In this document: positions 877 through 5,431 of the stretch, in pieces
Numbering within the stretch: position 1 is the stretch's first letter
Layout: each line of letters opens with the position of its first letter
Origin: a virus
UHGV virus genome: UHGV-0196841
Length of the DNA stretch: 19,870 bases
Direction: 5' to 3' (one strand)
Program-made: the position numbers and the translations under genes
Notes under the pieces: model-generated
Database searches by the model: none
Seen by the model: only the letters and a program-made list of their open reading frames with translations
What the model was told of the DNA's origin: nothing

Positions 877-1260
877 ATCGCACGTCTCTTCTCCTTGCGA
901 CACCGGCAGGACACCGGGCGCTTATGGTCGGCAAGCGACGTCCCTGTAGCAAGGCAAACCATCGCTTCACGTGAGATGCTGAAAACGAAAGCTCATCCTT
1001 CTGCACTGGCGCACGTCGCCAGAAAGTAATGTTAATAAAGCGTAGTGAAACTTTTGCACAAAACAATACAAACTGTGTGGATTTATCTTTTAGCGATAAA
1101 AATGGACCTATTTTTCTTTGGCCGGGCGGTGGGGATGTTTAGCCGGTTGCTAAACGAGTAAAAGAGAAGGAATTCATGGTGATGAAATGATCAATCTGCT
1201 GTTATTTCACGCTATCAATGCACTTTTGGCTGTTTTTCAGGCAAACAAACAAATTAGGGG

Positions 1261-1289
1261 TTTACACGCCGCATCGGGATGTTTATAGT
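1261..1289 (+). promoter_or_regulatory. Candidate sigma70 promoter of serT: -35 TTTACA (1261-1266), 17-bp spacer, -10 TATAGT (1284-1289), GC-rich discriminator GCGCGTC before the tRNA 5' end
   Basis: Near-consensus hexamers with 17-bp spacing placed 12 nt upstream of the mature tRNA start. A GC-rich discriminator is typical of stringently controlled stable-RNA promoters. Sequence reading only. Confidence 0.5.
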
Positions 1290-1301
1290 GCGCGTCATTC
1301 C

Positions 1302-1389
1302 GGAAGTGTGGCCGAGCGGTTGAAGGCACCGGTCTTGAAAACCGGCGACCCGAAAGGGTTCCAGAGTTCGAATCTCTGCGCTTCCGCCA
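1302..1389 (+). tRNA. serT: tRNA-Ser, anticodon UGA
   Basis: 88-nt sequence GGAAGTGTGGCCGAGCGGTTGAAGGCACCGGTCTTGAAAACCGGCGACCCGAAAGGGTTCCAGAGTTCGAATCTCTGCGCTTCCGCCA. It has a 7-bp acceptor stem (GGAAGTG/CGCTTCC), an anticodon stem CCGGT/ACCGG with loop CUUGAAA (anticodon UGA), a long variable arm typical of class II Ser tRNAs, a TTCGAAT T-loop and encoded CCA. Confidence 0.95.
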
Positions 1390-1396
1390 AATAATC

Positions 1397-1430
1397 AAGG
1401 GGTTACCAAACGGTAGCCCCTTTGCTTTTT
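1397..1430 (+). terminator. Hairpin AAGGGGTTACC-AAAC-GGTAGCCCCTT followed by TGCTTTTT; likely intrinsic terminator for serT, possibly bidirectional
   Basis: 11-bp stem (one G-U pair) with 4-nt loop at 1397-1422, then a T-run at 1426-1430 on the plus strand. On the minus strand the same stem is followed by GATTATTT, so it may also terminate the prophage late transcript after tfa. Confidence 0.5.
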
Positions 1431-1435
1431 GGGTT

Positions 1436-1469
1436 CTTGGTATAAACTTGGTATACCAATTGGTATATT
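1436..1469. repeat. Three direct copies of TTGGTATA (1437-1444, 1448-1455, 1460-1467; spacing 11 and 12 bp) forming overlapping perfect palindromes TTGGTATACCAA (1448-1459) and TATACCAATTGGTATA (1452-1467)
   Basis: Directly visible in the sequence. Located 47-78 bp 3' of serT, in the intergenic region between the tRNA and the last prophage gene. Confidence 0.6.
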
Positions 1470-1713
1470 TTCAGTCTTTAATATCTGCGATATTTTTCCC
1501 GCGAGCGCCTCTTTTGATGTCTTTGTGGCCTCAAGGTTTTTCTGAGCTAACGACCAGTTTCCTGATTGAATGCAAATCCCCCAGACTGCTCAGTTCTTCC
1601 TTCATCTCCCTCCGACGGCGATAAATCTCGTCATTGCGATCGACCTGCGCCTGCGCCATCTGTCAGCGCACCTGATATCACTACAGACATAGTTTTTCTC
1701 GCGATAAATTAAA

Positions 1714-2258: not shown

Positions 2259-3368
2259 TTAACCTGATACAGATCGCCATGCACCATTAATATAAATCTG
2301 AGCCTGTTTGTAATACACGCCACCGATATTGTCTGCAGAGTTACGGCCAGTATCCTGAACATTAATGCCTGACAAAACACAACCAGAAGGTGCTCGAAAC
2401 GTCCAGCTGTGCTCGTTCCCGCCCGGGTTGTAAAACACCTCACTGGTATACTGAAAATTCTGTACGCCACCTGTTTTGGTCTGGTAGCGGGCATCGAAGT
2501 TTCCGTAGTCTGACGGTATAACCTGACGCCCGCATCGCCAGTTTCCCGCATCATCCATATACGCCTGACCGTCCGTACCATTATCCGTACGGCTATTATT
2601 TATCATGTAAATGCCAAACTGCTTATTCCCAAGACCAGCCAGGAAATACTTTCTGTCTGCATGATCCTGACGCAGAAGCGCCTGAGCAGCATCAGTATTT
2701 ATCCTGTTTTTCCCGAAAATAACGTTGTTGTCACGCATCTGAATCCACGTTCCGTTACTGCTGTTAATCGCAAAACGGCCTGCAAATACATCTTCTGTAA
2801 CATCCAGACCGTGTCCCATAGTTATGCGACCGGTCCTGAGATTAAGCGTAAAGGGGCGTAGCGGCCCAATATCACCACTCTCGCCCTGATTTTCCCGGGT
2901 AGGAATGAGGTGCAGACACTCTTCCGAACGACGAAAAATCAGACCAAAGGCTTCGTTGAAAATCCTCAGTGCATTAACACCACGGATTTTCAGCTCCCCG
3001 GTCATGGTGTCTCCATCACGCTGAACGGCATTTTTTGCCTTATCCACCGTGGGTTTTAATCCGAGGTTTTCAACAGCCTCATCACTGTCTTCGACATCCG
3101 AAAGATTATTTTTTATCAGCAATGCCTCTTCGTTAATTGCACCGCCCACCAGTAATAATATGGCTTTATATAACTGGTCGTGTTCCTCTTTATTCAGTTC
3201 TATCCCGGCCTTCTCAATGACACCACAGATTTCCTCCTGAAGGGCATCCCACATGGCACTGTTCAGCCAGGTGGCATGACGCCCTGTACGAATATTCCCG
3301 TCAGTAAATCCGTTCTTGCCCGGGCCAAATTTATCTTTAACTGCTGTCGGAGTGTCAATTCTGTGCAT
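2259..3368 (-). CDS. Tail fibre protein, distal/receptor-binding part (P2 gpH C-terminal-like)
   Basis: 369 aa. ATG at 3368 with GGGAGG 6 nt upstream. Segments AVQRDGDTMTGEL, SDYGNFDARY and the C-terminal AQIYINGAWRSV resemble the corresponding parts of P2 gpH-type fibres as I recall them. Followed directly by tfa. Confidence 0.8.
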   Translation of the reverse strand: MHRIDTPTAVKDKFGPGKNGFTDGNIRTGRHATWLNSAMWDALQEEICGVIEKAGIELNKEEHDQLYKAILLLVGGAINEEALLIKNNLSDVEDSDEAVENLGLKPTVDKAKNAVQRDGDTMTGELKIRGVNALRIFNEAFGLIFRRSEECLHLIPTRENQGESGDIGPLRPFTLNLRTGRITMGHGLDVTEDVFAGRFAINSSNGTWIQMRDNNVIFGKNRINTDAAQALLRQDHADRKYFLAGLGNKQFGIYMINNSRTDNGTDGQAYMDDAGNWRCGRQVIPSDYGNFDARYQTKTGGVQNFQYTSEVFYNPGGNEHSWTFRAPSGCVLSGINVQDTGRNSADNIGGVYYKQAQIYINGAWRSVSG

Positions 3369-4471: not shown

Positions 4472-5431
4472 TCATTCGGACGTGACCACAGCAAAATGCA
4501 GTCCCGGGTGATTAATCAATAACGGATCACGGGTTCTGCTGGCTGTCTGCAACTGCATACTGTTAACCGGTACGGGGGAGCGGGTCCTGTATCCCGTCTG
4601 CAACTGTGCGCAGTTCATGGTCATGGGGTCCGTTGTCGGCAGACCTGAGTGCAATTGCGCCCTGCTGAGTACCAGTGGTTCTGCCATCGGACGGGCGGCA
4701 TAAAAGTTAATCCGGTTAATTGTCAGCGGCTTACCTGTCAGTGCCGGAACAACCGCAAAATGAACACCTGTATGATTAATCGCTAATGGCTCAGTCGTCT
4801 TGTGTCCGGCCTGAAAGGAGAGGCTGTTTATAGTCAGGGCGGCTTGTTGCCCTTCACCAGACTCATCCGGATATGCAAAAAGGACAACAGTATGCGACGG
4901 ACATAATTTATTAATCACGCACTCCGCAACCGTATCACCCCACGTCCGGATCGGTGTGTTACAGGTGTCCGAACATGTCTGCCACTGAGCACCGGCATCC
5001 ACCGGCAACGTCACACGCCAGAAATAACGCCAGCGATCACCCCATTCCGGATCGGGGCTTGCATCCAGGTGCTGGAACTGTTCGATCGTCACGCCGGTAT
5101 ATCCCAGCGCCTCAAGCTGCTCCAGGAAGAACTGCTCATTTATGCCACCAGCCACATTGGCTTTTGCTTCCAGCCGTTGCTGACGCTGGCGTAATGTCTG
5201 GGCTCCAACAGGAGAGCAGGTGTCAGGTAAACCATACAATTCTTCATAACGTTCAATCAGCTCTGTTGACTGACCAGGATCGATTTCAGCCATCAGTTCA
5301 TCAGTCCGCTGATGAACACGTACAAGCGATGGTGCCAGACCATCAAGCACGCCGTCGGTATCGCTCCATGCAGGCCCCGGCGGCATCAGTCCGTACAGCA
5401 GCTTTGTATAATCATCCTGTAACGAATCCAT
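4472..5431 (-). CDS. Baseplate protein, Mu gp48 / DUF2313-like, with about 130-aa C-terminal repeat-containing extension
   Basis: 319 aa. ATG at 5431 overlaps the stop of the upstream gene (TAATG) and has AAGGAG upstream. Position directly after the Baseplate_J-like gene, and an N-terminus MDSLQDDYTKLLYGLMPPGPAW, fit the gp48/YmfQ family. The C-terminal third contains duplicated motifs (INHTGVHFAVV / INHPGLHFAVV; QLQTGYRTRSP / QLQTASRTRDP). Confidence 0.7.
   Translation of the reverse strand: MDSLQDDYTKLLYGLMPPGPAWSDTDGVLDGLAPSLVRVHQRTDELMAEIDPGQSTELIERYEELYGLPDTCSPVGAQTLRQRQQRLEAKANVAGGINEQFFLEQLEALGYTGVTIEQFQHLDASPDPEWGDRWRYFWRVTLPVDAGAQWQTCSDTCNTPIRTWGDTVAECVINKLCPSHTVVLFAYPDESGEGQQAALTINSLSFQAGHKTTEPLAINHTGVHFAVVPALTGKPLTINRINFYAARPMAEPLVLSRAQLHSGLPTTDPMTMNCAQLQTGYRTRSPVPVNSMQLQTASRTRDPLLINHPGLHFAVVTSE

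Follow-up and report, generated by a model that had tools for sequence, protein, structure and literature searches.

The Repeat Array Downstream of serT

Just downstream of the tRNA gene serT, at the edge of a prophage, a short array of phased repeats raises the question of whether these repeats are sites at which the phage integrase (Int) holds its attachment DNA, an operator for a dimeric DNA-binding protein, or a host element unrelated to integration. A first inspection of the DNA letters (hereafter, the sequence-only reading) had put forward the first two possibilities. In the window, i.e., the whole stretch of 19,870 bp under analysis, the 8-mer TTGGTATA is found as exact matches at positions 1437-1444, 1448-1455, and 1460-1467 on the plus strand and 1452-1459 on the minus strand, and none of its four copies lies outside the array. 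The chance expectation is 0.39 copies, and four were reached in 0 of 200 dinucleotide shuffles of the window. As delimited by the repeat finder, the direct copies take the 9-mer forms CTTGGTATA, CTTGGTATA, and ATTGGTATA, starting at 1436, 1447, and 1459 (spacing of 11 and 12 nt), and the whole reads ...GGGTT CTTGGTATA AA CTTGGTATA CCA ATTGGTATA TTTT.... The three phased copies described in the sequence-only reading were confirmed, and both of its perfect palindromes (12 and 16 bp) are exact, namely TTGGTATACCAA at 1448-1459 and TATACCAATTGGTATA at 1452-1467, the latter a perfect dyad of 8 + 8. Its distance from the tRNA also stands, since the array lies 48-78 nt 3' of tRNA-Ser(UGA) (1302-1389), directly past the T tract of the terminator. 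The features of the array are the following:

1436-1444, plus strand: candidate P'1 arm-type site, CTTGGTATA, at +100 from the centre of the anticodon loop (position 1337)
1447-1455, plus strand: candidate P'2 arm-type site, CTTGGTATA, at +111
1452-1459, minus strand: inverted copy of TTGGTATA arising from the CCAA spacer, in the E. coli lineage only
1459-1467, plus strand: candidate P'3 arm-type site, ATTGGTATA, at +123
1468-1471, plus strand: TTTT, the final conserved bases of the P' arm, beyond which different prophages show at least four unrelated continuations

A structured RNA at the array was considered and rejected, the Rfam search (E <= 1) having returned the tRNA, a chance-level match to MicX, and no other RNA family.

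The Boundary between Host and Phage DNA

The serT region was matched in all 5426 complete E. coli genomes. K-12-like genomes align only to window positions 1250-1429 (query 1-180), with ~94% identity; the identity is perfect up to 1394, past this point their sequence is unrelated or homeologous, with a different terminator, no array, and then yccA. The junction at serT proposed from the sequence therefore holds, with the refinement that the host/phage switch sits at 1394/1395. It follows from this position that not only the array but also the terminator belongs to the phage; prophage-free K-12-like strains, with unoccupied serT loci, have no array, ruling out its host origin. The features of the tRNA locus are listed below:

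1261-1289, plus strand: serT promoter-like site, TTTACA-17-TATAGT, host DNA
1302-1389, plus strand: serT, tRNA-Ser(UGA), identified by Rfam; host-derived to 1329, with the att identity block starting at 1330
1329-1333 and 1341-1345: putative core-type Int sites, corresponding to the arms of the anticodon stem (CCGGT/ACCGG) and unlike TTGGTATA
1330-1394, plus strand: att identity block ("core") of 65 bp, CGGTCTTGAAAACC...CCAAATAA, present as an exact direct repeat at the other prophage end and also in the attP of phage Evi
1334-1340, plus strand: anticodon loop CTTGAAA, the putative strand-exchange (overlap) region
1393-1405, plus strand: candidate H' bending site, AATCAAGGGGTTA, between the core and the arm sites, by consensus match only
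1397-1430, plus strand: phage-borne replacement serT terminator, with an 11-pair hairpin (1397-1422) and a T tract

The two terminators, K-12-like AAGGGGTTAGCTAAATGCTAACCCCTT and phage AAGGGGTTACCAAACGGTAGCCCCTT, differ by compensatory stem changes: the host TTAGC/GCTAA corresponds to TTACC/GGTAG in the phage (window 1397-1430 compared with L001 748-780), which suggests selection for proper termination of serT after integration.

The array was retrieved from 703 of the 5426 complete E. coli genomes (~13%; 781 places) with a probe of 71 nt that covers the array and the last part of the terminator, and nearly all the matches end at window position 1471-1475. All the copies sampled in alignments (O157, O26, O103, ETEC, and others) lie between serT and prophage genes. 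The alignment of ten junctions revealed that positions 1395-1471 are common to ten prophages/phages and are followed, past 1471, by at least four unrelated continuations; just 1 variable column is found in the 36 nt at 1436-1471, and ~10 in the preceding 41 nt. Since the array is maintained while the continuations differ, it represents the conserved outer end of a mobile module common to differing prophages, whose right-hand attP limit, judging from these alignments, is position 1471.

The first phage cargo past the att arm, outside the att site, is the following:

1532-1660, minus strand: truncated DUF4376/tail-fibre-assembly pseudogene

According to the annotated genomes matching the window, a gene of the YmfQ family at 4472-5431 (minus strand) is devoid of its C-terminus, and a matching prophage harbors an IS66-family insertion in its early region (L007 10809-13397). 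In the light of these truncated or pseudogenised genes and of the IS66 insertion, this copy of the prophage may be defective. In E. coli O166:H15 JNE21-009, the serT prophage agrees with the window except that its baseplate gene is interrupted by a Mu-like transposable prophage (L004 27246-40501), which carries a repressor, Mu transposase, GemA, Mor, and other Mu-type genes. The same tail/head module occurs with 99.5% identity at a different chromosomal locus of NZ_CP157093, and its homology begins at window position 1559, which points to a second mosaic joint in addition to the one that bounds the att arm at 1471.

The Other Prophage End and the Organization of attP

The whole window is present, with 99.8% identity, inside a 43.7-kb prophage of NZ_CP159170. 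The far end of this prophage consists of a DUF4224 (Xis-like) gene, the integrase gene, a P arm, a copy of the 65-bp core, a host-type terminator, and yccA. The duplication of the tRNA 3' segment anticipated at the other end was found: the two copies of the 65-bp block (one being window 1330-1394) are exact repeats 43,654 bp apart, beginning in the anticodon stem of serT and ending 5 nt beyond CCA. In all the lineages examined, the left edge of the identity between phage and host falls at tRNA positions 28-30, i.e., in the 5' strand of the anticodon stem; from this edge, and from the established classification of tRNA integration sites, we infer a crossover in the anticodon loop.

The motif also recurs at the far end, where the sequence-only reading had proposed to look for it, the P arm carrying, beside the lambda-type integrase gene, a perfect CTTGGTATA (P1) at a distance of 118 bp (-118) from the anticodon-loop centre, the presumed crossover. 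The same arm contains an IHF consensus, perfect and read on the complementary strand, as well as a degenerate direct CTTGGTGTTA. Overall, exact TTGGTATA occurs six times in the 43.7-kb prophage, five of the copies being within 130 bp of the two cores; thus, copies are found in both arms of attP, flanking the core and unrelated to the putative core-type sites. In Escherichia phage Evi, where attP is contiguous, the order is int, P1 CTTGGTATA, IHF consensus, core, terminator, and triplet. P1 (TTGGTATAT) is invariant and in register across five otherwise diverged P arms. A clear inverted P2 was not found in the P arm of the E. coli lineage, where the degenerate direct CTTGGTGTTA is the only further copy; the inverted candidate TATTATACTG was rejected, because it aligns with the IHF-like block (H2-like) of the relatives and not with their inverted copy.

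Concerning IHF, the perfect consensus WATCAANNNNTTR occurs in the window at 1393-1405 (AATCAAGGGGTTA) only, as a consensus match alone, and in the 8.1-kb Evi locus solely at L005 3907-3919 and 4054-4066, both in att and one per arm. Sister lineages show 1-2 mismatches to the consensus at the P'-side position. This P'-side match spans the point of divergence between host and phage, the host reading AGATAAGGGGTTA and the phage AATCAAGGGGTTA.

The orientation of int is peculiar to the E. coli serT-Int lineage, in which int runs toward the P arm, with P1 situated 30 nt past its stop codon (L005 2962-4130, the Evi attP, and L007 6560-7997, compared with L009 2990-4147 and L223). Since the att segment is inverted relative to int, it is the tail-fibre end of the prophage, not int, that adjoins the intact tRNA.

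A decayed relic of a serT-type attP was also observed among T3SS effector genes of Stx2/PPompW prophages integrated at ompW (LC567818; L008 ~2920-3140). It comprises a mutated tRNA half, a terminator, and GTTGGTACA on one side and CTTGGTATA/ATTGGTACA on the other, and is evidence of past module shuffling.

The Integrase Family and the Variation of the Repeats

The integrase (339 aa) aligns from its first residue with residues 1-339 of lambda Int (E = 6e-18), and the alignment takes in the motifs of the N-terminal arm-binding domain (MGRxR…LPP…NGY.Y…GLGR.R). In Pfam, Int matched Phage_integrase and gave no match to the Arm-DNA-bind model at E <= 0.01.

Most IMG/VR contigs encoding relatives of Int end 3 nt past int, thus without att DNA, and no att was found next to int in two relatives sharing 76-78% identity (L086 and L088). 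For this reason, IMG/VR was scanned with the 3'-terminal 33-mer of serT, the sequence downstream of which was read, and an Int scan was performed on genome contigs. In nearly every phage-type arm of IMG/VR, a terminator hairpin is followed by three direct 8-mers with 11-13-bp spacing. The 8-mer is TTGGTATA in the window lineage, in a Salmonella junction, and in L094, L115-L117, L129, and L140; TTAGAATA in L009 (phage BUCT708), L091, L096, L106, and L134; and GAAGAATA in L092 and L142. Further lineage-specific 8-mers are GTTAGCGT and TCGTAGAA, and the TTCACTAT(AT) of Xenorhabdus, Providencia, and Arsenophonus is close to the lambda GTCACTAT.

In the relatives, the P arm harbors a direct copy ~118 bp out, an IHF-like YAANNNNTTGATW, and an inverted copy ~50 bp out. 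The P-arm copies change in step with the 8-mer of the P' arm, as in L115 (TTGGTATA ... TATACCA): they read TTGGTATAT…ATATACCA in L115 and L110, AAGAATA…TATTCTAT in L009, and GAGGAATA…TTATTCTTC in L092. Some IMG/VR loci mix the P arm of one type with the P' arm of another; the two motif types sometimes disagree because many of these loci are hybrid att sites of tandem prophages.

An alignment of seven Int sequences was then used to scan one genome per species. A triplet starting within ~45 nt of the int stop codon was found in 35 of the 74 gammaproteobacterial homologues, almost always with a spacing of 13/11, the controls giving 2/65 windows and 0/74 shuffles; the remaining 39/74 homologues showed no triplet under the thresholds used. 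The triplet-bearing genera include Buttiauxella, Citrobacter, Raoultella, Gilliamella, Sodalis, Xenorhabdus, Aeromonas, Photobacterium, and others. Hence, the position and the spacing of the triplet are kept across the Int family, and the sequence of the repeat varies with the Int lineage; the E. coli lineage has a spacing of 11/12 versus the family norm of 11/13.

The comparison of the window Int with those of TTAGAATA type (L109 and L134) gave 76% identity outside the N-domain and 48-56% inside it; with Ints of TTGGTATA type (L129 and L094), the N-domain shares 63% and the rest 62-66%. The motif is therefore tracked better by the N-domain than by the rest of Int, in a descriptive comparison of a small number of independent lineages, made without phylogenetic correction.

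As to Stenotrophomonas phage vB_SmeS_BUCT708 (OM816834), the 33 nt of serT to CCA in its attP are identical to the enterobacterial serT and its Int shares 54% identity with that of E. coli; the Stenotrophomonas host under which it was deposited may deserve a check.

A Model for the serT Attachment Site

It is highly probable that the junction in the window is the attL (B-O-P') of a serT prophage and that the three TTGGTATA copies are P'1-P'3 arm-type sites for the N-terminal domain of Int. The arm-type reading finds support, at the sequence level, in the fact that the array is phage-borne, that the core is duplicated, and that the motif occurs in both arms; on the comparative side, it is backed by a triplet placed at the same position family-wide, with a sequence varying with the integrase lineage.

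In this model, the phage attP carries the 3'-terminal 60 nt of serT, starting from the anticodon stem, then 5 more nt, its own copy of the terminator, and the three putative arm sites; the other arm carries P1 (CTTGGTATA at -118) and an IHF-like site. Int would be heterobivalent, its C-terminal domains binding and cutting at the anticodon stem-loop and its N-terminal domain holding the distant arm sites, and IHF-type bends (candidate H' at 1393-1405) might join core and arm into an intasome. After integration, serT and its terminator would be restored by the phage half, and the P' triplet would remain at the left junction, to be needed again for excision. We infer in this way the binding of Int to the repeats, the role of IHF, and the role of each site in integration versus excision. 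The candidate arm sites lie at +100 to +130 from the presumed crossover, whereas those of lambda lie at +55 to +85; the greater distance is explained, although the model is not proven, by the tRNA 3' half and the terminator that attP carries first.

Arm-type sites belong to the textbook picture of lambda-type integrases. The literature search disclosed no paper describing arm sites or att anatomy for the serT integrase family, serT being merely listed as a locus of STEC prophage integration (PMC8767318). Most likely, the repeats are an ordinary and expected component of a phage attachment site, so far undescribed, to judge from this search, for the serT-targeting phage family.

Alternative Explanations

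The palindromes are due to the spacer between P'2 and P'3, which in the E. coli lineage is CCAA, with a 12-nt spacing, and in sister arms is TTCAC, with a 13-nt spacing. They overlap a stretch resembling an operator:

1445-1462, no strand assigned: UxuR operator-like AACTTGGTATACCAATTG, overlapping P'2-P'3, identical to AAATTGGTATACCAATTT at 16 of 18 positions, including the central 14

The latter sequence is the published UxuR site of the E. coli uxuR promoter (PMC8092373), and no other site of the window resembles it with 5 mismatches or fewer. By way of this att arm, the operator-like stretch occurs in ~13% of the complete E. coli genomes. UxuR recognises very few K-12 sites in vitro (PMC5934670), hence a perfect core box is uncommon. 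Moreover, the dyad owes its existence to a change of the spacer (from TTCAC to CCAA, and from 13 to 12) that represents a derived state, fixed among the E. coli copies. It might accordingly be imagined that TTGGTATACCAA(TT) works as an operator bound by the host hexuronate repressors UxuR/ExuR, dimers of the GntR/FadR family, which would occupy P'2-P'3 and render integration, excision, or local transcription responsive to glucuronate/galacturonate, possibly in coexistence with the arm-site function. This appears unlikely. The match to the UxuR core is largely automatic, because any dyad built on TTGGTATA yields that sequence, and it is thus not independent of the dyad. The dyad itself is missing from the sister att arms of TTGGTATA type (Salmonella, Citrobacter, Buttiauxella, and others), where the spacers are TTCAC or CTCAG, and lies, therefore, outside the general mechanism; yet the hosts of these sister lineages, as Enterobacteriaceae, presumably also encode UxuR/ExuR. 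The scan of the region gave the serT promoter and terminator only, with no promoter-like (sigma-70-like) site overlapping the array; no intact plus-strand gene is located downstream in the window, just remnants of minus-strand tail-fibre genes, and no hexuronate gene is nearby. In addition, all the E. coli copies may stem from one attP module, so that their conservation is not independent evidence. The literature search found no report of ExuR/UxuR binding at the serT att locus. Thus, the operator for a dimeric protein envisaged in the sequence-only reading is unsupported as a conserved feature, the dyad being confined to the E. coli lineage, and the promoter/operator reading of the array was discarded. 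A combined scenario, quite unlikely in our opinion, is that, in the E. coli lineage, a one-base deletion and substitutions turned the P'2-P'3 spacer into a UxuR/ExuR core, the repressors competing with Int; if so, excision or re-integration of the prophage at serT would be gated by gut glucuronate or galacturonate.

Another explanation is that the triplet binds the recombination directionality factor (RDF), i.e., the DUF4224 Xis-like protein, rather than Int, setting the direction of recombination instead of scaffolding Int. RDFs commonly bind tandem direct repeats about one helical turn apart, as in the case of lambda and P22 Xis and of TorI, and the array has this form; moreover, a DUF4224 gene is located directly upstream of int in every lineage. 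Nonetheless, RDF sites normally lie in one arm, between arm site and core, whereas the motif is found here in both arms (P1 and P'); the position of the triplet matches that of lambda P'1-P'3, which abut the int stop codon, and the repeats of some lineages are near the lambda Int arm consensus. Furthermore, the similarity of Xis does not follow the repeat type, the window Xis sharing 59% identity with those of TTGGTATA-type relatives and 61-65% with those of TTAGAATA type. The RDF explanation is, therefore, very improbable.

The idea that the array belongs to the host, e.g., as a regulatory site for yccA or serT, or is a low-complexity repeat that arose by chance without relation to integration, to which its AT-rich, intergenic position downstream of a host tRNA and its -10-like hexamers might lend some color, is practically untenable, given the unoccupied serT loci devoid of the array, its presence in the contiguous attP of Evi, the shuffles (none of 200 with four copies), its maintenance while the flanks vary, and the lack of any promoter over it in the region scanned.

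Relevance of the serT Attachment Module

The interpretation of the repeats as arm-type sites defines the attachment-site anatomy of widespread serT prophages, i.e., core, likely crossover, terminator, P1 and P'1-P'3, and the limit at 1471. The module is present in ~13% of the complete E. coli genomes, including O157, O26, O103, O111, and O145 strains, and its carriers include effector-carrying lambdoid prophages of O157, O26, and O103 strains. It may be used for the correct delimitation of prophages and for the explanation of hybrid junctions in tandem arrays; in addition, the natural pairs of Int N-domain and arm motif (TTGGTATA, TTAGAATA, GAAGAATA, TTCACTAT, and others) are available for the study or the engineering of specificity, the family-wide allelic series of arm motifs being a modestly useful by-product. 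Since lambda biology predicts such arm sites, the result is useful rather than surprising.

Comparison with Known Systems

The closest parallel considered here is the attP of lambda, in which P1 is direct, P2 is inverted, and P'1-P'3 are direct, with P'3 overlapping the int stop codon. The two systems share a homologous Int, including the arm-binding N-domain, three direct repeats about one helical turn apart in the P' arm, and one more direct copy, in the P arm at ~120 bp, adjacent to an IHF consensus; the relatives of the window lineage also possess an inverted P2-like copy, and in most of them the int stop codon is directly adjoined by the triplet, as in lambda. They differ in the motif (TTGGTATA here and (C/A)AGTCACTAT in lambda), in the target (the anticodon loop of serT and the gal-bio attB, respectively), and in the P' arm, which is ~50 bp longer because the tRNA 3' half and the terminator precede the arm sites. 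Unlike lambda and most relatives, the E. coli lineage has int beside the P arm and not beside the triplet, and no clear inverted P2.

Integrases that use the anticodon loop of a tRNA gene and possess arm sites are known from P22 (thrW), HP1 (tRNA-Leu), and mycobacteriophage L5 (tRNA-Gly). As in these phages, the portion of the tRNA gene present in attP begins in the anticodon stem and reaches the 3' end, which allows the gene to be restored; Int would likewise be heterobivalent, its arm-type repeats lying beyond this portion. The systems differ in tRNA target, Int lineage, and arm motif, and the phage described here brings a terminator with compensatory stem changes. The IntS-TorI module of KplE1/CPS-53 at argW, also from an E. 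coli prophage, is similar in its make-up, combining a tRNA att site with Int arm-type sites and a small RDF; integrase, RDF family, and target differ.

Finally, the UxuR/ExuR operator AAATTGGTATACCAATTT (GntR/FadR family) shares with the array 16 of 18 positions and a perfect 12-bp dyad; however, the stretch found here is outside a promoter, has no adjoining hexuronate gene, and is not kept in sister att sites, and the resemblance probably results from the close packing of two arm sites.
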